Below are positions 1-13,049 of a stretch of DNA of 64,000 nt, in pieces. Both the position numbers and the translations under genes were made by a program. Below the pieces are notes generated by a model, which was not told the origin of the DNA, made no database searches, and saw only the letters and a program-made list of their open reading frames with translations. The DNA is from Dictyostelium discoideum. Lineage: Eukaryota. The DNA lies in the NCBI GenBank assembly GCA_000004695.1, contig CM000155.2, positions 1,376,001 to 1,440,000 of the forward strand. The letters are read 5' to 3'. Within the stretch, counting starts at the first letter, position 1, and each line of letters begins with the position of its first letter.

Positions 1-1
1 A

Positions 2-2288
2 TCCCAACATGTATCTATTATCGCAGGAGATTTCAACTGTATCCACAACGACAATTCACTATTAGACGATATTATCCAATCCTACACATACCAACACCAT
101 CTAATTGATCAAGGTGAATTTAAAAACACTCCAACTCATACACATGGCAACAGATTAGATAGAATATATACTCAATACAATAGAATAGACCCTGAAAATA
201 TATATACACAAGTCCACCAAATTCCATCTTCATTATCAGATCATAATCCAATATCAACAACAATTTCTTCACCTTTTCAAATAAATAAACATAAGAAAAG
301 ATGGATATTATCACCTGGTACTGCAAATGACCATGAAGCAATCAATATTATCAATCATTTAATAACTAATCACAATAACACATCAATCAATCAATTTACA
401 AACTGGTCAAAAGTAAAATCAAAAATTATTAAAACTCTAAAAAACTATCAATATAACAAAGACAAACAAACTCAACGTGCAAAACAAATACTATTAGAAA
501 AAGCAGCAAAATTCAAACATCTTGAAGAACAATGCATCGCTGAATACAATATTATATGTAACAAAAACAAATTACATCAAAACCACACAAACATATTAAA
601 AAAACATATAAATTTAGAAATACCTAGCAAGTATCTATCAGCAATACTAAACAAAAGATCAAAAGATGCAAAAATTGAATCAATCCAATATGGTAACATC
701 ATTACATCCGACCCCGACCAAATTGAAAATGCGTTTGTTGAATTCTACACAAATCTATATAGCTTACAAATATGTTGTCCAATTACTCACCAGCTCATGC
801 TAAACACATGGCCCATCATAAAAAATGAATATTGGAATGGTTTAGACTCACCATTTATACAAGATGAAGTTGAAGCTGCAATTAAAACCTGTAACCCCAA
901 CAAATCACCCGGTCCAGATGGCGTTACAAATGCATTCTACATTAATCATCTAAACCAAGTTAAACCAATTCTCACTACATTATTCAACGATATACTAGAA
1001 AATCCTCACCACATCACAACAGAATTCACAGAAGGTCTTATACACACAATATACAAGAAAGGCAACCCCTTACTCATATCAAATCGTCGTCCCATTACAC
1101 TTCTAAACACTGATTACAAGATCCTCTCCAAAGTAATCAATGCACGTCTTCTGAGAATACTTCCTTTCATCATCAACAACAACCAAACTGGTTTCGTACC
1201 CCACAGATTCATCATAGACAACATCATCAACATCAATGAATTAATCAACTACCTCAAATCTAAAAACCTCCCTGGTATCATCACACTATTTGACTTCTTT
1301 AAAGCATTTGACTCTATCTCTCACGATAGTATTAAAAGAACATTAATTCATATTGGTATACCAATAAAATTAATAAATTTAATCCACAAGCTATTATCTG
1401 ACTCACAAGCAAAAATTTCAATTAATGGTAAAACGACCAGAAAATTCGATATTAAAAGAGGTGTAAAACAAGGTGACCCAATCTCAGCCACTTTATTTGT
1501 AATTGTAATTGAAATATTAGCAAGAACAATAAATGCAGACAATTCAATAATTGGATTACCAATTTCACCCAATCCACAAATTAAAATCAAATTTACCCAA
1601 TTTGCAGACGACTCTACAACATACAACATCAACTACGAACAACAACAACAATCAATCAAACATTTCGATAATTTCTGCGCTTCAACATCATCATCTTTAA
1701 ATTTTGACAAAAGTGCAATAATAGAAATCAACCCCCACAAAATCACTGATAAACACATAATAAACAACATTCCACAATCAAAAAGAATTCCAATAACCAA
1801 AAAAGATCAATCAGAAAGAGTTCTTGGCTATTTCTTTAATCATAATGGTTTACATAGGAAATTACCAGAAACAATGAAAACACTGATTAAATCATTAGTG
1901 CTATGGAAAACTAGTGGCACAACATTAAAAACAAAAACAACCATCATAAACACCTACTCACTATCACCAATAACATATTTATCATACCTTGAAGAATTTA
2001 CAAAAGATGAAGAAATTCAAATTAATAAATTAATCTCATGGTTTATGAATTCTCCCGCAAATTCTGAATCACCAACTCTCGATACCAATTCCATTGAAAA
2101 CAACACATCAACCATCCATTCACGTGCAAAAATACCTTTGATGTGTTATGATAGATCATTAAAACCATTAAAAGAAGGAGGTTGGGGTATGTGGAATATC
2201 CAATTACGACAAGTTGCTCAAAAGATTTGGATATACAACAGATTTTTACAAATGCATAAATCTGCAAACAATTCAATATACATGATAA
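2..2288 (+). mobile_element. 5'-truncated ORF2 (AP-endonuclease C-terminus + reverse transcriptase) of a non-LTR LINE-like (TRE-type) retrotransposon; continues into the assembly gap
   Basis: Single open frame from window start to the N-run (same frame as track ORF 797..2425). Motifs read directly: IIAGDFNC and SDHNPI (APE-type endonuclease C-terminal motifs); then RT motifs PGPDG, QTGFVPHRFI, FDFFKAFDSISHD, RGVKQGDPISATLF, FADDSTTY (YxDD box). Assignment to the dictyostelid tRNA-gene-targeted TRE class is inferred from host context only. Confidence 0.8.
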
Positions 2289-2388
2289 NNNNNNNNNNNN
2301 NNNNNNNNNNNNNNNNNNNNNNNNNNNNNNNNNNNNNNNNNNNNNNNNNNNNNNNNNNNNNNNNNNNNNNNNNNNNNNNNNNNNNNNN
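2289..2388. other. Assembly gap (100 N)
   Basis: Run of exactly 100 n characters. Confidence 0.99.
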
Positions 2389-2431
2389 TAATTTTTTTTT
2401 TTTTTCATTTTTTTTTTCTAATTAATTTTTA

Positions 2432-2830
2432 TTAATTTATTTTTATTAACTCCCTGAGTTGTTCAATTGCTTGATTTACCATATCACTGTAAACACTGCA
2501 CACAATTGAATTTTTTCTAGCTTTGTTACCTCTGGTGCATTTGATGTTTTTGCATTTTCCTTTGTATACAAAAAAGTCCAAATATAATTCGTTTTCTATT
2601 ACAGTTTTTACACAATGTTGGTGAAATTGTTTTGATTTTAATTCTAATGCTTCTAACATCATATTTGGATTTTTAACGATTAAAGCATCACCACTATTTA
2701 CATATAGTACTTTGGCTGCTTTTTCGAGGAATTTAGTCAAATTTTCCTCTGAATCTAACTATTCTTCATTGCCATATTCAATGGCTAAATTTCTTAAGAG
2801 TTTTATCGAATCTATTAATTCTTCGATCAT
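2432..2830 (-). CDS. Small hypothetical ORF, unidentified; N-terminal 23 codons (MIEELIDSIKLLRNLAIEYGNEE) lie in a different frame from the 102-aa track ORF, so a frameshift or sequencing error next to the gap is likely
   Basis: Track ORF 2432..2740 (102 aa, contains FFVYKGKCKNIKCTRGNKARK). Upstream minus-strand ATG at 2830 opens a second frame that stops at TAG and abuts the first ORF. Moderate GC and no homopolymers suggest coding, but I could not match a family. Confidence 0.25.
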
Positions 2831-3066
2831 TCTTTTTTTTTGAAATTTTTTTTTATTTTGTTTTTTCAATTTTTTTTTTTTATTTTGTTTTTTCAATTTT
2901 TTTTAAGTTTTATTTTTTTTTATTTTTTTTTATTTTTTTTAACAAATGTAATTTTTTTTTATTTTTTTCAATTTTTTTTTTTTTTTAATTTTTAATTTTT
3001 TTTTTTTTTTTTAATTTTTTGTGTTGATTTGTGTTTTTTTTGTTTTTTTGATTTGGCCACTTGTTT

Positions 3067-5360
3067 TTATTTTCTAATTTCCCCATACCCCCTTCTATTA
3101 ATTGCAACCAAATCAAGTTCTAATTTTTGTGTCCTTGTTAACTTTGTTTTTGCAACTTTTTTTGAAGGTATCACATTAACGATTTTTCCTATTGATGGTG
3201 ATTTGGAAGGTGATTTAAATGGTGATTTAAAAGGTGAATTGGAAGGTGATTTAAATGGTGAATTGGAAGGTGAAATGGATGGTGATTTGGAAGGTGATTT
3301 AAATGGTGATTTGGAAGGTGATTTAAATGGTGATTTAAATGGTGAATTGGAAGGTGAAATGGATGGTGATTTGAGAGGTGATTTGGATGGTTTAGAATGT
3401 GATTTTAAAGGAGGTTTATTAACAATTGGTATCTTATGAGGACGGCCTCTGAGACGTTTAACAGTTGTTACTATACCACTACCAGATTGTGGTATAGTAT
3501 ACGATGGTATTATTTGCACTTGAGGTATTGGTGGTACTATTTCTTTTAAATTCATATCCTTTCTCAAACAATTCATTAAATTTGGCGCTGTTGGATTATT
3601 ATTTAAAAATGGGAGTATTTCTTCTTGTTCCATTTCATTATTGAGTTTGTGTTGAAATGGATTATCGTTAATGATAGGTGGAATATTTGATGGATTGTTA
3701 AGAGCATCTTCCAAAACCCTAAATGGATCATTTTGTGTTACCAATTGATGCAAGTTGAAATTGGATAAATCCTTACCAAGATTTTTAATAAACTGAACCA
3801 GAAATTCAATAACTTTCCCATCATTATTTAAATAAAGACCAGAAGTAAAAGAATCAATATCTTTTTGTATGTTTGGCGATGTTCTAAAAATATCAACTGT
3901 TGATTGTTTATAAAGAACCAACTTGTTACCTCCTACAAAACCAGAGTATAAACCTTTTTTTTGAAGGCTATTGATTCCATCTTCCAAAAATTCAAGTTTA
4001 TAAAGTTGTTTAGTGTCTTCCTGTATTACCTTATGAATTTTACACAAAATCAATATTTTCTATTAGAATTAAATATAAAATTTGTTAATTATTACTGTTT
4101 CATATATTATTAATCTTTATGTTTTAATTACTTACATTATTTTTTTTAATTTCTAGAAAGAGTACAGTATCACCAACTTTCAATCCCTTTGGTGGTTTTG
4201 AATTCCATTGATTTTGGTAACTTGTGAGATTTTCAAGAATAATAGCTGTTCTTTCTTCTTTTGAAACATCTGAAACACCAATTGATTGAGAGTCTTGTTC
4301 TGATTGAACATTAATAAACAAAGGAACAATACCAACAGCTTGAGATGGTTTCATTTTAATTGTTCTTGTTTTTGTATTATTGTAATCATACAAAGCTTGT
4401 TTTAATAGTTCAGAAAGAGACCTAGAAGTACCATCAAGAAAACTAAAATTTATTTATAAATGATTAATTAATAAACATATCGATAATTTATATTGTTCAC
4501 AATATCATACTCTTGTTGTTTTAATTTTGAGATCCTCTCCTTGATAGTTCGATTCAATCTTTCTACCATACCTTGAGTTGTTGGTGTACGAGGAGCTCCA
4601 TGTGCTGACTTGGAGCCTGGAAAAAGTTTTAGGAATTCTTTTTGGACTTTGTTTTTAAATTCACGTCCATTATCGCAGTGCCATACTTTCACAGGTTTGC
4701 CAAAGTACGTGAGAGCCAAAAAATTGTATATGGGAACTGTTCTCTTTGTTGTCAAACATCTAAAAAATAAATGATAATTAAAATAAAAAAAGAAAACTAA
4801 TAAATTAATAAATAAAAAATAAATACCTTCCAGTAGCAAATTTTGTAAAAGAATCTATGCATAGAATAATGTAAACAACATCGGTGTCGTACGGTTGTAC
4901 AGAGTCATATTGGATAAGATCATCTAGTTTAGTTAGTATCTTTTCATTATCATCATCGTATGTAACTTTTTCTTTATGTTCACCTTTAATTGATGTTAAA
5001 TCATAAACCAATCTTGAGTATTCCTCGGTATCTACAATTGGAGCAAAATCCTTTGTTATACCTATTAATTTATTTAAATTATTAAAAGAGTTTTAATATA
5101 AAAGTTACAAAACATCATATAAAAATGATTGATACCAAACCTTTTATTCTATTTCGTTGGCAAATGTCACACGTATCTACTGCATCAGATACAAAAGAAT
5201 ACAATCCCATATTATAATATTTAGTCTTGTAGTTCCCATAGGTTGCATCTCTTCCTATATGACCTTTATGCATTTCTTCCCAGAGTGATACCATTCTATA
5301 ATCATTAATTACTTCTAAACACACTTCTTTTGATATATTTCTATCTCCGCCACAATTCAT
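3067..5360 (-). mobile_element. Degenerate Ty3/gypsy (chromovirus; skipper/DGLT-like) integrase fragment: HHCC zinc finger, DDE core, C-terminal GPY/SH3-like region, possible chromodomain-like segment, then a novel AT-hook + (SPxK)n tail; frame-disrupted
   Basis: Minus-strand ORF pieces in reading order. 5360..5115: H-x3-H...C-x2-C (HKGHIGRD...CDICQRNR). 5011..4805: IDSFTKFATG. 4839..4468: VWHCDNGREFKNK...HGAPRTPTTQGMVERLNRTIKE, the classic retroviral-type integrase core. 4393..4124: ALYDYNNTKTRTI...KGLKVGDTVLF. 4053..3067: KIHKVIQEDTKQLYKLEFLEDG, then KRLRGRPHK and SPxK repeats. The frames of successive pieces differ. The junction at 4468/4393 cannot be rescued by any GT-AG splice in any phase, so it is a true frameshift. 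No RT or RNase H lies upstream (5360-5800 is poly-A), so the element is truncated. Confidence 0.75.
3195..3425 (-). repeat. About 19 tandem 12-bp units (ggtgatttggaa/ggtgatttaaat/ggtgaattggaa on plus strand) encoding an (S-P-x-K)n repeat (KSPSKSPFKSPSNSPF...) at the C-terminus of the integrase-like ORF
   Basis: Periodicity visible directly in the sequence; the minus-strand translation gives SPSK/SPFK/SPSN/SPSI units. The AT-hook-like RGRP lies just upstream (plus 3441-3463, ggacggcctctgagacg). Confidence 0.9.
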
Positions 5361-5579
5361 GACTTTTTTTTCAATTCTAAATAATTTTTCTTTTCTGTTT
5401 CTGTTTTTTATTGGTCAGAATTTAAAAAATGATTGTGTTATTGTAAGGAAAAATATTTACTCATCATGTAAAAATTTATAATTTTTATGTTTAGTATTTT
5501 CAAAATTATTATCTTCAATAAATTTTAAATAATTTATAATTTCATTTATTTTATCTTGTTTCATTTTGGGAAAATGAAA

Positions 5580-5614
<35 letters not shown>

Positions 5615-5809
5615 TGTTGGGGAAAAAAAAAAAAAGTTTTGGCGCAAAAAAAAAAAAAAAAATTAAATTAAAAAAAAAAAAAATTAAATTAAAAAAAAAA
5701 AAAAATAAAAAAACTTATATAGAACTAATAATCAAATAAAAGATAATAATTTAATAAACTTTATTTGTTTTTTGAAAAAAAAAAAATTTAGGGTCAGTGA
5801 TTTTTTTTT

Positions 5810-5875
5810 TTCACTACGCTACTGTAGTGAAATTAAATAATAAAATTCACTACGCTACTGTAGTGAAATTTTATT
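5810..5875. repeat. Two direct copies of a 26-bp element (attcactacgctactgtagtgaaatt), each containing an inverted repeat tcactac-gctac-tgtagtga (hairpin potential)
   Basis: Exact duplicate 32 bp apart (5823-5848 and 5855-5880 approx). It sits between the poly-A tract that follows the integrase fragment and the first codon of the truncated paralogue A. Confidence 0.9.
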
Positions 5876-6979
5876 GAAAATTCCCTACAACAATAATCAT
5901 ATTCAAAATTTAGATAAACAAATTGATATCAATAATAAGTTATTAAATGAATCAAATAATTTATTTAAACCATTAGAAGATAAACACACTGAAAATGTAA
6001 ATACAATCACAAAAGTATTTAAAGAACTCTCCAAATTATTACCAATCATTGAAATTGATAAAATCAAACAATTAGTAACACTCTATGATGAAAATAAAGA
6101 TATCAATACAAACATTTCAACCATTATACATGATAATTTAAATAATATTAATTTAATTACAAATAAATATAAAAATACAATAAATCAAATAAATATTGAT
6201 CAAATCATTAATAACAATAAAAATAATTATCAACATATTGAAATATTAAAACATTGTCATCAATCACAATTATTAATAAAAGATAATCAAAATGAAAATA
6301 AAATCAAAGAATTAATAAATCAATATAAAAATGTAAATATTGTAAATAATAGTAAACAAGTTAAAGAATCAATTAAAGAAATATTTGAAATTAGCGATTC
6401 TCTCTCTATTGCAAATGTAAAAGACCCAAAAAGAGTTACTGGTAAATATTTTAAAAAAATATAAATATAATAATAATTGTGGTATTTGTTTTATTTTAAT
6501 TATTAATATTAAATTATTTATTTAAAGTTACAGGAAAAGGATATTTTATTTATAAAAATGATTCTATCATTCCAAATGGTACTACTCATGTAGCGATTGC
6601 ACCAAGTGTTAGAACAATTAAAATAGGTTCAATTCCAACATCGATTCAATATTTGGTATTACTTGATGGATTTAATGTTCAACTAAAAGAAGGTATGCTA
6701 CCGCAATCAATTATATATCTATATGTTGGTGCAATTAAAAAACCATTGTTAAAAGGTTCAATACCAAATAGTGTTACTGGTTTGTTTTTATTAGATGGAT
6801 TTAATCAAGAAATAACTGAAATACCACAATCATCTTGTTTATACCTTTTTGATACTCCTTTGACAAATTTCCCATTTCAAAATCTAATTTACAGAAGCCC
6901 AAAATATAAACAACAACTCACTCACTCAAAGGTTGGTAATTGGGATGGTCGTAATTATGATCCTATAATTGAACTTTAA
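5874..6979 (+). pseudogene. Paralogue A of a B-box/coiled-coil/FNIP-repeat gene family, 5'-truncated: no B-box and no ATG; exons 5874-6441 and 6528-6979
   Basis: Homology to copy C read directly (..IEILKHCHQSQLLIKDNQNE..KDPKRVTG vs ..IELLKHSYQTQILLNEQDDD..KDPKRVKG). Intron 6442-6527 (GTAAAT...TTTAAAG), phase 1, at the same position as the copy-C intron. Exon 2 encodes VLLDGFNVQL...GSIPNSVTGLFLLDGFNQEI (FNIP-like repeats). The open frame starts at TTG immediately after the 26-bp repeat, and there is no Met codon in 196 codons. Confidence 0.6.
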
Positions 6980-7270
6980 AATATATTTATGTTTGGTAAT
7001 AACAAATGGAAATCCATCTATAAATTTCTCTTTTTTTTATTTCATTATTTTTTTAAAATTGTTTTAAAACGATAAATGAAGAAAAAAATTTATTTTAAAT
7101 TTCCACATTTAAGTTTACCACTTTTTTTATTTTGAACATAAAATTTATTTTCCAAAGAGTTAAATAAATCACATTATTATAAAATTACACATTTTTGTTT
7201 TATTTTTTTCCTTTTTGAGATAAAAATTGTTTTTTTTATATCTAAATATTATCATTAAAAATGAAACAAC

Positions 7271-7325
<55 letters not shown>

Positions 7326-7640
7326 AAGAATACCAAAAAAAGAACTCTAACCAAAATAATAAAAATCATTAAAAAAAAGTGATTTTTATTTTTTACATTC
7401 TATTTTAATTACCTTTTATATGTAGAATGTATCTACCAAATCCAGAAAAATAATTTCCATATGAGCAAAGAAATTGTATTAAATAAAATTTATTTTTATT
7501 AACTATTTAGGCGATTTAAATTTTAAATGTATTTTTTTTTATATAAAATGTAAAAAAACTCGATTTTAAATTTATAGAATAGTATTTTATAATTAAAAAA
7601 ACAATAACACAAATTAAAGAAGATTCCAAAAACTATGATA

Positions 7641-8660
7641 TGAAATGTGAATTTCATGAAGAAAATAAATATAAATTGATATGCCCAACATGTAAAGTTG
7701 CAATGTGTAAAGTTTGCATAATCAGTAAAGGTCATCGTGGTCATGAAACTGAGTTGATTACAAAAGATAGTATTGAACCAATAACTAAAGAATTTAAAGA
7801 TATTAATTTCAAATCAATACAAGAATGTTCAAATAATATTAAATAAAATTTAGAAATATCAAATAAAAAGTTTTATAAAATTGAAAAAGAATATTCAAAA
7901 AATGAAAACTTTGGAACCAAATGAATTCAAGAAAATAAACAAATTATTACAAAAAACAGAAAATGATAAAATTAAAGAACTTTCAACTCATTTTAATACA
8001 AATAAAGAAATCAATACAACATTTCAACTTTGGCAAATAAAAATTTAAAAAATATTGATCAAATTCAAAAGAAATTAAAAGAATTAAGAGACTTTAATGT
8101 GGAATCATTAAATGATAATGATAACAATAGTAATGATAAGGATAAGATTTTAGATTTTTTAAAACATTATCATCAAACCAAAATTGTTTTAAAAGAAATT
8201 TCTTATGAAAGTGAAAGTGAAATTAATGAATTATTAAGTGAATATGAATATATTACCAAACGGTACTCCATATTTAGAATTAGGACCAAGCATAAAGAAT
8301 TTGAAAGCTGGTTCTATTCCTACAACTGTAGTCTATATTATTTTACTAAATGGATTTAATTTCCAACTTTTAAATGGTATTTTACCAAGTTCACTTCAAG
8401 TATTATATGTTGGAGCTATCGAAAAACCATTATTGAATGGTTCAATACCATCAAATGTTTCCACACTCGTTTTATTGGATGGATTCAATCAAAAAATATC
8501 TGAAATACTACCAAGGATTAGTGTTGTATATGTTGGTGATATTCATTCAGAAGAAATTCCACTAAAAAGTACTATCCAAATTAAAAAATCCCCTTCTTGT
8601 AAACAACAATTCAACAATAGCAATTATGTATACGAATGGGAAGGATGTAAGGAAAAATAG
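7641..8660 (+). pseudogene. Paralogue B of the B-box/coiled-coil/FNIP family: intact B-box (MKCEFHEENKYKLICPTCKVAMCKVCIISKGHRGHE), then at least four frame changes; intron-less at the position where copies A and C carry an intron
   Basis: Track ORFs 7640..7846 (B-box), 8030..8359 (coiled coil, LKHYHQTKIVLKEISYESESEINELLSEYEYI) and 8238..8660 (LPNGTPYLELGPSIK..LNGFNFQL..LLDGFNQKI) lie in different frames. Between 7847 and 8040 there are two more short frame-shifted pieces homologous to the copy-C coiled coil. Confidence 0.55.
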
Positions 8661-9732
8661 TTTAATTAGAGGAAATTAAAAAAACAATAAATAATATTAG
8701 TTATTAGAAAGATTTTTAAAAGAGATTATTATAATTTTTTTTTTTTTTCTAAAAATCATTATATAATTTGTTGTTGCTGTTTCTCTTTTTGTTGCTTTCT
8801 AATTCTGCTAATTTCTTTTCTATTTCTTGTTCTTTTCTCAACTTGATCCATGTTTTCTAATTTTTCACCTTTTTCAGCTTTTTCTTTTTGTTAAATTTAA
8901 GTTTTCTTTGTTTTTCTTGTTGTTTTTCACGAGTTCTTTAATTCTTGTTTTTCTTTTGCTTCGTTATCTCTTCTTTTTCCTCTTTCTTTCTTTGTTTTTC
9001 TTTTTGTTGTTTGTTGTTGTTTTTAAAATTTTATTTCTTTTCAATCTTTTACTCATATTCTAATTGTAATTGTTTATCTTTTTCAAGTTTTTCTTTTATT
9101 TCTCTTTCTTTTTCAATTGAGCTTATTGTTATTGGTTTCTATTTTTTTCTTCTTTTTTTCTTCTATTTCTATTTCTCTTTCCAATTCCATTTGAGTCAAT
9201 TTTTCTTGTTTTTCTCTTTGATATTTTTTTTTGGTCTTTTTGAATGCATTCTAGGTCACTTTGTTCTTGTTTCTTTTTCCAATGGTTTTTTATTTTCAAA
9301 TTGTTTCTCTGATTGAAAGATTGATTTCACGTCTACTGAGAATGCAGATTGTTTCTCTTTCTAATTGAAGACCAGATTGATATTATGTTGTAATATTACC
9401 CATTGTTGTTGATGAATTGACATCAGAATCAGCAGAATTGAAACAGCTAAACAATATAAATTATTCCATCTTGAGGGTAGACGTAATATTAGAGTTAAAA
9501 GTTGATTTAAATCATTGATAGTGATGGAAAAAAAAAAAAAAATGAAAAAAAAAAAATAAAAAAAAATAAAAAATAAAAAAAAAAAAAATAAACTAGATTA
9601 ATACGAGACAGATCAATTAAATATTTTTTAAAAAAAATAATAATAATAATAAAATAAAATTATTTATTTGAAAAAAAATAAAAATAAAAATTAATTAAAT
9701 TATAATTTTTTGATTTTAATTATTTTTGGAAG

Positions 9733-11933: not shown

Positions 11934-12066
11934 ATGGACGATATTCATAATAATAATGAAAACATTCAAAATGATTATGACAATATTGTAATATTATCAG
12001 AACAAGAATCAATTAAAAATCAAATTGACATTGATTTTAGTATTGAACAATTTAGTGATAATAATA

Positions 12067-12097
<31 letters not shown>

Positions 12098-12100
12098 TAG

Positions 12101-12140
<40 letters not shown>

Positions 12141-13049
12141 GATAATGATAATGATAATGATAATGATAATATAGATAATACCAGTATTATTTGTGAAGAT
12201 TATGACGATAAAATAAATATTATTAGCGATAATAATATTAATAATAATATTAATAATAATAATAATATTAATAATATTAAATACGATAATAAATGTATTT
12301 TTCATAAAGAACAAGATTATAGATTCATTTGTAGTGATTGTCAAGTACCAGTATGTGATATGTGTATAGTTAGTTCAGAATATCATAGATCTCATGTATT
12401 TGATTTAATTAATCAAGTTAATACAGCTACATTATTTCAAGATTTTAAGAATAAACATTTTCAAAATTTAGATCATTGTTTAGAGAGTATTAAAGAATCA
12501 GTCAACGATTCTAATGAAATCTATAAGAATTTAAATGAAGAACATAATCAAAATGTAAATATTGTAACTAAAGAATTTAAAGAGATTCACTCACTTTTAG
12601 AATCAATTGAAAAGGATATCATTAACAGATTAAATAGTCATCATGATGAAAATAAAGAAACCAATGAAAAAATTACAACAACTGCAAATGATCACATTAA
12701 AAATGTTGATCAATTATTAAGTAAATATAGATACTCAATCAATGATTATAATATTGATGAAATTTTTAATAATAGTAATAATAGCAATAATAATAATTGT
12801 GGTAGTAGTAATCGTCAACATATAGAATTATTAAAACATAGTTATCAAACCCAAATATTATTAAATGAACAAGATGATGATAATACACTCAATAAATTAA
12901 TAAGTGAATATAATAAAATTTCATTAATAAATTCAATTGATCTCGTTAAAAATTCAATTAAAGATACTTTTCAAATTCAACCAAATAGTCTTTATTCTGA
13001 AGATTCAAAAGATCCAAAAAGAGTTAAAGGTAATTAATTAATTTTTATA

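Follow-up and report, generated by a model that had tools for sequence, protein, structure and literature searches.

What does the repetitive, basic end of an integrase-like open reading frame (ORF) in the genome of Dictyostelium discoideum represent, and what might such a sequence contribute to the protein that carries it? The question arises at positions 3067-3480 (minus strand) of a 64,000-nucleotide stretch of contig CM000155.2 (hereafter, the window), where a first-pass annotation had described a chromoviral integrase ending in an AT-hook followed by about 19 S-P-x-K repeats, and had suggested that this combination takes the place of a chromodomain in tethering the enzyme to AT-rich DNA. 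From its sequence features, we identify the element as Tdd-4, a cut-and-paste DNA transposon of the Ginger2/TDD group with a transposase of the retroviral-integrase type. The repetitive segment is the C-terminal tail of that transposase, and we judge it somewhat probable (roughly 60%) that the tail serves as a non-specific, AT-preferring DNA-binding arm.

Read on the minus strand, ORF 3067-4053 contains TVKRLRGRPHKIPIVNKPPLKSHSKPSK, followed by the repeat array and then by GKIVNVIPSKKVAKTKLTRTQKLELDLVAINRRGYGEIRK and the stop codon (Table 1); its translation stands as originally given, and the AT-hook KRLRGRPHK had been correctly placed within it. Translating the 64-kb window in six frames gives 127,996 residues, among which the tetrapeptide RGRP occurs a single time, in the AT-hook, and composition shuffling gives P = 0.003 for its appearance in the protein by chance. 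Set beside the HMGA AT-hook consensus TPKRPRGRPKK (PMC11354804), the segment TVKRLRGRPHK agrees at 8 of 11 positions, among them the core RGRP and the basic residues flanking it.

The array itself consists of 16 in-register tetrads: SPLK (one), SPFK (six) and SPSK (three), making ten of strict SPxK form, together with three each of SPSI and SPSN. The presence of an array was therefore rightly reported, but not its size, since a count of 19 requires inclusion of the degenerate lead-in PPLK-SHSK-PSK. These units are SPXX in the broad sense (tandem S/T-P-x-x in a basic segment), whereas the proposed likeness to canonical histone SPKK does not extend to the sequence of the unit: none of the 16 has lysine or arginine at position 3, and lysine occurs at position 4 alone in ten. 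At the DNA level, Tandem Repeats Finder reports a 12-bp period of 16.2 copies at 3197-3391 (score 187) and higher-order periods of 24 and 36 bp over the array (score up to 250), and a self-match at an 84-nt offset marks a higher-order duplication of seven units (84 bp). The 83 residues between the AT-hook and the terminal motif include 15 lysines and neither aspartate nor glutamate; the whole tail of 131 residues has 30 lysines and arginines versus three acidic residues. A 136-residue plus-strand ORF across the same region (3029-3439; GDLEGDLNGDLKGELEG..., GDLEGDLNG...) is only the antisense reading of the 12-bp repeat and should not be annotated as a gene.

Structure prediction with AlphaFold2 gives residues 560-692 a predicted local distance difference test score (pLDDT) of 24-33 and no secondary structure, with a terminal helix of low pLDDT at residues 694-714. 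Ahead of the tail, residues 375-434 form a five-strand SH3-like barrel (pLDDT 63-81). The model is poor overall (mean pLDDT 52.8), and only its core, its barrel and the disorder predicted for the tail were used.

Assembly of the gene model yields six exons separated by five GT-AG introns of 60-79 nt and an intact product of 715 residues, which differs at one residue (K314 versus T) from a 715-residue protein (P0014) called on four D. discoideum contigs. The protein starts with an N-terminal extension, ahead of the zinc finger, catalytic core and barrel. Among Pfam models, Integrase_H2C2 matches with E = 1.2e-7 (32.1 bits; cut-off 25.5), and rve and rve_3 score below cut-off in the DDE core. 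A profile of the family compared with PDB entries retrieves the integrases of prototype foamy virus (PFV; 7e-20) and Ty3 (2e-15), and the full-length PFV and Ty3 integrases are also the best Foldseek matches of the predicted model. The start codon at 5564 is preceded by A/T runs and an inverted repeat, with no reverse transcriptase (RT) upstream on the same strand.

The ends of the element lead to the same assignment. Published TDD-4 is 3,839 bp in length, makes a 5-bp duplication, has TGTNR termini and encodes an H2C2 + DDE transposase lacking GPY/F, and Ginger2 elements have targets of RTATAY type (Bao, Kapitonov & Jurka 2010, PMC2836005). Here the terminus at 5892 reads TGTTG, and about 145 nt from this point are matched near-perfectly, in inverted orientation, at the 3' end of a complete copy from D. 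discoideum (L001, positions 2722-8790), with the match decaying through A/T runs to about 5572. That complete relative carries the 5-bp target-site duplication TCATC on both flanks. Window position 2389 corresponds to L001 position 8462 and the 3' inverted repeat of the L001 copy lies at 8465-8790, so that about 328 bp, including the 3' inverted repeat, are missing here and the intact element would measure 3504 + 328, or about 3832 bp. A search for inverted repeats inside the window returned A/T-run matches only, because the 3' repeat of the element falls in the gap at 2289-2388. Within the 5' terminal repeat, two identical 25-bp direct repeats are each internally palindromic (CACTAC...GTAGTG), with A/T tracts on either side, and may be sites at which the transposase binds. 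No database match bears the name Tdd-4, and the assignment was made through element features and a sister cluster containing Tdd-5; it is drawn because the window copy agrees with published Tdd-4 in species, H2C2 + DDE domains, introns, TGTNR termini, the inverted repeat of about 145 nt, a size near 3.83 kb, and a pattern of near-identical copies accompanied by internally deleted derivatives. From Tdd-4 as described, the window copy differs in nothing substantive: 16 units are found here versus a reported 15, and the 3' end lies in the gap.

Proteins 95-100% identical to the transposase were found in D. discoideum only, where two clusters at 90% together contain at least 27 annotated proteins. 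Every full-length D. discoideum copy bears the tail, always in frame, with 15-23 units; the alleles distinguished have 15 (plus two degenerate), 16, 18 and 23. In a subfamily with about 11% DNA divergence (L002/P0002), the frame is held through roughly 21 tetrads, VKRLRGRPHKIPIVNKPP and the last 38 residues are retained unchanged, and the AT-hook of P0002, a protein 85% identical, is likewise unaltered. Exon 3 is absent from copies with the P0003/P0030 type of internal deletion, whose proteins are missing residues 122 to about 221; this fits the deleted form of roughly 3.4 kb ascribed to Tdd-4. Unfiltered self-BLAST, which returned much A/T low complexity, revealed no second Tdd-4 copy in the window.

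Beyond these copies, a sister cluster at 42-46% identity (P0004, P0035, P0038) includes DDB_G0290955, the Tdd-5 transposase, described as 'related to Tdd-4' (PMC3386910 and its supplement). Tdd-5 shares with Tdd-4 the order of transposase domains and the terminal motif (KKKLKFSRKELLANDFKILNRS), just ahead of which it has SPIK, SPKH and SPQK units; unlike Tdd-4, it has no AT-hook, and uncharged PP(T/A)IVTQ(A/T)PSN repeats occupy the position of the array. Another relative, P0006, has TPSK, SPSK and SPHK beside the terminal motif and no AT-hook, the aligned segment being VKIGNNIEHK. At the array position, a Dictyostelium dimigraforme protein (P0078) has acidic NSTTHSVDEEL repeats and a Synstelium polycarpum protein (P0056) has H1-like KVKKVAAK repeats, with four KVKKVAAKETSTKS units; in P0056 the transposase is also fused to FNIP/LRR-like repeats. 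Across Tdd-4, Tdd-5 and other relatives, K689, L698, D701 and R707 of the terminal motif are nearly invariant, and the terminal basic cluster takes the form PSKKVAKTK in Tdd-4, KKKLK in Tdd-5 and KKTKRPR in P0010. Because the repeats at the array position differ in this way, the family does not need SPxK there, and the non-basic repeats of Tdd-5 and other relatives contradict the notion of a family-wide targeting module. An AT-hook with basic flanks together with an SPxK array was found in no other integrase relative among the best 150 matches of an exhaustive representative search. Since relatives hold two to three SPxK-like units and the same terminal motif, and have no AT-hook, it appears that in the Tdd-4 lineage the array expanded by slippage and the AT-hook was gained by substitution in place.

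The reading we favor pictures the tail as a flexible polycationic arm appended to the integrase body, with the RGRP core and the repeated, lysine-bearing Ser-Pro turns predicted to lie in the narrow minor groove of A/T-rich DNA. Such an arm would supplement the SH3-like C-terminal domain of the enzyme with non-specific, AT-preferring affinity, and could help to hold the transposase both on AT-rich target DNA and on the subterminal DNA, rich in A/T tracts, that adjoins the 25-bp repeats of the inverted repeats. An AT-DNA-binding role, as first proposed, is thus a reasonable interpretation of the motifs, but the selection of targets is not part of it: the genome being 77% A+T (23% G+C), an AT-preferring tail is no selective targeting device and would at most increase overall affinity for DNA.

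Several known systems offer partial parallels. Suzuki in 1989, and Churchill and Suzuki in the same year, reportedly described SPKK/SPXX minor-groove motifs in the sea-urchin sperm histones H1 and H2B. Those histones resemble Tdd-4 in that Ser-Pro turns bearing basic residues follow one another in a disordered tail, for which a preference for the A/T-rich minor groove has been proposed; they differ in that Tdd-4 units such as SPFK, SPSK, SPSN or SPSI have at most one lysine each, with no SP[KR][KR]. HMGA has three AT-hooks versus one in Tdd-4, where the hook is missed by the short Pfam HMM (hidden Markov model). For lentiviral integrase, the tether LEDGF/p75 offers an import signal and AT-hook-like motifs that confer non-specific DNA and chromatin binding (PMC11354804); however, LEDGF/p75 is a separate host protein acting in trans, with specificity supplied by its PWWP domain, whereas in Tdd-4 the hook forms part of the transposase itself, in which no chromatin-reader domain was found.

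A number of observations weigh against a DNA-binding arm. The Pfam AT_hook model matched neither the protein nor an isolated 28-residue peptide (E <= 10); the model is only about 13 residues long, and HMMER filters drop such weak scores. The tail has one AT-hook only, and single AT-hooks are usually auxiliary. Lysine-bearing units have a single lysine each, six of the 16 units have none, and there is no canonical SPKK unit, which makes the histone analogy a loose one; binding in the minor groove is predicted from motifs. Repeats at the array position are unrelated in Tdd-5 (e.g., PPTIVTQAPS), D. dimigraforme (NSTTHSVDEEL) and Synstelium (KVKKVAAK), and [ST]-P-x-x arrays are frequent in large unrelated proteins that were matched through low complexity alone. 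Finally, the dN/dS of about 0.3 found in the array and in the remainder of exon 6, which speaks for conservation of the tail, is a rough Nei-Gojobori value from one copy pair with ambiguous repeat alignment.

Some of these same observations would fit a different account, in which the array is a flexible, slippage-prone, low-complexity spacer, the conserved terminal motif (an import signal or docking helix) is the part that matters, and the SPxK composition simply follows from whichever 12-bp unit chanced to expand. Wholly different repeat types among Tdd-4, Tdd-5 and the D. dimigraforme and Synstelium relatives, coupled with retention of the terminal motif, would be expected of a spacer, as would the range of 15 to 23 units among near-identical copies, the predicted disorder of the region, and the similar [ST]Pxx arrays of unrelated proteins, the nearest Pfam model being 'PT disordered repeat'. 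We nonetheless consider this account improbable, if worth serious attention: the array is strongly basic without a single acidic residue, SPxK-like units adjoin the terminal motif in relatives of 42-59% identity, and an AT-hook, kept without change in the diverged subfamily, appeared directly ahead of the array in the same lineage, so that two independent changes point in one functional direction.

A second alternative regards the tail as a cell-cycle switch, in which phosphorylation of SPxK units by cyclin-dependent kinase (CDK) would regulate entry into the nucleus or affinity for DNA, tying transposition to S or M phase. Phosphorylation of SPKK is known to lower the DNA affinity of histone H1 and sperm histones, and the [ST]-P-x-[KR] CDK consensus is found ten times in the window copy and 10-15 times in other alleles, alongside the conserved basic cluster resembling an import signal (PSKKVAKTK; KKKLK in Tdd-5; KKTKRPR in P0010). 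The tails of neurofilament H/M, with their KSP repeats, and other clusters of CDK sites are similar in K-S-P-x periodicity, in multiple sites for proline-directed kinases and in disorder, although the protein context of the neurofilament tails is unrelated and the kinase sites of Tdd-4 are predicted from the consensus. Moreover, the ORFs of Tdd-4 and Tdd-5 rank with the most strongly de-repressed genes of a retinoblastoma (Rb; rblA) mutant, an effect the authors link to S phase (PMC3386910). Against such a switch, six of the 16 units have no lysine, phosphorylation of the tail is a prediction, and Tdd-5, although also Rb-regulated, has only about three such sites; we hold the switch to be doubtful.

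Neither the spacer nor the switch is mutually exclusive with a DNA-binding arm. A composite can be envisaged, to which we attach as low a likelihood as to the switch, in which the tail would be a recently assembled, built-in AT-DNA clamp, made of a hook that evolved in place and an array grown from 2-3 ancestral SPxK units, whose binding or nuclear entry could be switched by CDK through 10-15 consensus serines and which, together with Rb-repressed transcription, would confine transposition to a window of the cell cycle, making it a cis-encoded functional counterpart of LEDGF-type tethers.

Very little can be said for the original proposal that the ORF belongs to a chromovirus (Ty3/gypsy), its chromodomain having been replaced by an AT-hook + SPKK module that selects AT-rich targets. 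The catalytic core is clearly retroviral/Ty3-like, and the lack of a chromodomain noted in that proposal was borne out by Pfam searches of the whole protein (E <= 1) and of residues 360-560 (E <= 10). A chromoviral chromodomain is also, like the tail, a C-terminal addition behind the SH3-like domain of an integrase, but it is a folded reader of histone marks rather than a disordered basic repeat. The anatomy of the element refutes a chromoviral origin: the gene has its own ATG and five introns; Pfam recovered integrase domains only within the transposase unit, with no RT, RNase H, protease or gag; the terminal repeats are inverted, not direct, and the complete copy has a 5-bp duplication; and the sole RT nearby is that of an APE-type element lacking long terminal repeats (non-LTR), on the other strand and beyond the gap. 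The GPY-like region said to follow the integrase core is likewise missing, as no G-P-[YF] occurs anywhere in the transposase; absence of GPY/F is a trait of Ginger2, a group without any chromodomain that could have been lost (PMC2836005).

Expansion of a microsatellite by chance in the window copy alone, conceivable for a 12-bp tandem repeat in a repeat-rich genome, is refuted by the identical tail of at least seven other annotated proteins and by the in-frame alleles, of 15-23 units, in all other full-length copies, including the 11%-diverged subfamily.

Tdd-4 as presented by Wells in 1999 reportedly has 145-bp inverted repeats with TG...CA ends and a transposase in which HHCC and DDE domains precede a C-terminal SPXX region, the last comprising 15 tandem repeats said to have been proposed as a DNA-binding motif; the AT-hook upstream of them is not known to be highlighted in the abstract. 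By that account the SPXX tail is largely already described, contrary to the first-pass annotation, which was aware of no such description. Literature text searches for SPXX together with Tdd-4 or transposase gave nothing relevant.

Wells is also said to have reported a total of six introns, the last of them of AT-AA type and provided with an alternative 5' splice site whose use is said to skip the SPXX repeats. In the window, a candidate sixth intron of 257 nt can be read as GT-AG at 3088-2832 or, shifted by two bases, as AT-AA at 3086-2830; the AX4 model P0003 uses the GT-AG form, joining ...AINRRG to MIEELIDS.... Its removal would alter the last six residues only, leaving the AT-hook and array untouched. 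The downstream Cys/His-containing frame, which matches no Pfam family and has relatives in D. discoideum only, annotated there as separate proteins of 102-114 residues, could be exon 7 of the transposase gene or a small gene in its own right.

Table 1. Coordinates of Tdd-4 features in the window.
Feature	Position	Strand	Description or basis
Tdd-4 copy, 5' terminus (5892) to assembly gap	2389..5892	-	99-100% nucleotide identity to D. discoideum copy in L001
Assembly gap, 100 N	2289..2388		Removes 3' end of element
5' terminal inverted repeat	5748..5892	-	Terminus reads TGTTGTAGGG (TGTNR rule); inverted match to L001 3' end
Two identical 25-bp direct repeats (TTCACTACGCTACTGTAGTGAAATT)	5810-5834 and 5846-5870		36 bp apart, inside terminal inverted repeat (repeat search)
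Exon 1	5461..5564	-	ATG at 5564-5562
Exon 2	5141..5400	-	H2C2 (HHCC) zinc-binding domain, residues 76-119, about 5148-5279
Exon 3	4827..5061	-	DDE core begins (D143 in YDLTS, CIDSFTK)
Exon 4	4511..4759	-	DDE core (HCDNG; GMVERLN with invariant E266)
Exon 5	4136..4442	-	DDE core ends, SH3-like beta-barrel begins
Exon 6	3067..4059	-	Residues 386-715 and stop; rest of barrel (to about 3913), low-confidence helical region, tail
C-terminal tail of transposase	3067-3480	-	About 130 residues, predicted disordered
AT-hook KRLRGRPHK, residues 586-594	3433..3459	-	Translation and motif scan
Degenerate lead-in IPIVNKPPLKSHSKPSK	3382..3432	-	Translation, allele comparison
S-P-x-x array, 16 in-register tetrads	3190..3381	-	12-bp minisatellite; codon reading
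Conserved terminal motif GKIVNVIPSKKVAKTKLTRTQKLELDLVAINRRGYGEIRK and stop	3067..3189	-	Basic cluster and predicted helix
Cys/His-containing frame (MIEELIDS...HQHC...CKNIKC...C...)	2432..2843	-	Within element, downstream of transposase stop; in-frame TAG 2757-2759

The surroundings of the window copy and of its complete relative record further insertions. Just outside the 5' terminus, the plus-strand segment 5895-6461 has 40% protein identity (E = 5e-37) to residues 175-366 of the plus-strand ORF 11934-13034, which places the Tdd-4 insertion within one member of a gene family of this region, cut short by it; a further paralogue contributes a B-box zinc-finger ORF at 7640-7843 on the same strand (Pfam zf-B_box, 4e-9). 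On the far side, positions 1-2288 (plus strand) hold a truncated non-LTR retrotransposon ORF, comprising the C-terminal part of an APE endonuclease and RVT_1 (E = 7e-31), which enters the 100-N gap. It was rejected as part of Tdd-4, being of APE type, on the opposite strand and beyond the gap; around 2289-2388, where the assembly is broken, transposable elements thus form a nest. The Tdd-4 copy in L001, which belongs to another D. discoideum assembly, has been invaded in its turn, by three insertions of one element of about 760 bp (3108-3867, 5299-6056 and 7108-7867) that are 98.5-100% identical to one another, with termini CACAGCAAAG...GCTGTG and imperfect inverted repeats of about 160 bp. 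In the AX4 protein DDB_G0282355 (P0015; ...SPFKSP|HSKEKCTFKANLKKS), the SPxx array continues into sequence translated from the same end of this element. The element, which is not present in the window, has the appearance of a small non-autonomous transposon, possibly thug-S, that strongly prefers Tdd-4.

The main value of these results lies in correct annotation: the integrase at this locus is that of a Ginger2/TDD DNA transposon and not of a chromovirus. To the SPXX tail, a known hallmark of Tdd-4, they add an HMGA-like AT-hook directly upstream of the repeats, conserved across Tdd-4 subfamilies, and a repeat number that is polymorphic (15-23 units) yet always in frame. As an SH3-like C-terminal domain precedes it, the tail is an addition to the DNA-binding domain of the integrase rather than its replacement. 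The dictyostelid relatives, in which a common terminal basic motif accompanies unrelated repeats, frame the question of whether such tails act in binding DNA, as spacers or as phospho-switches.

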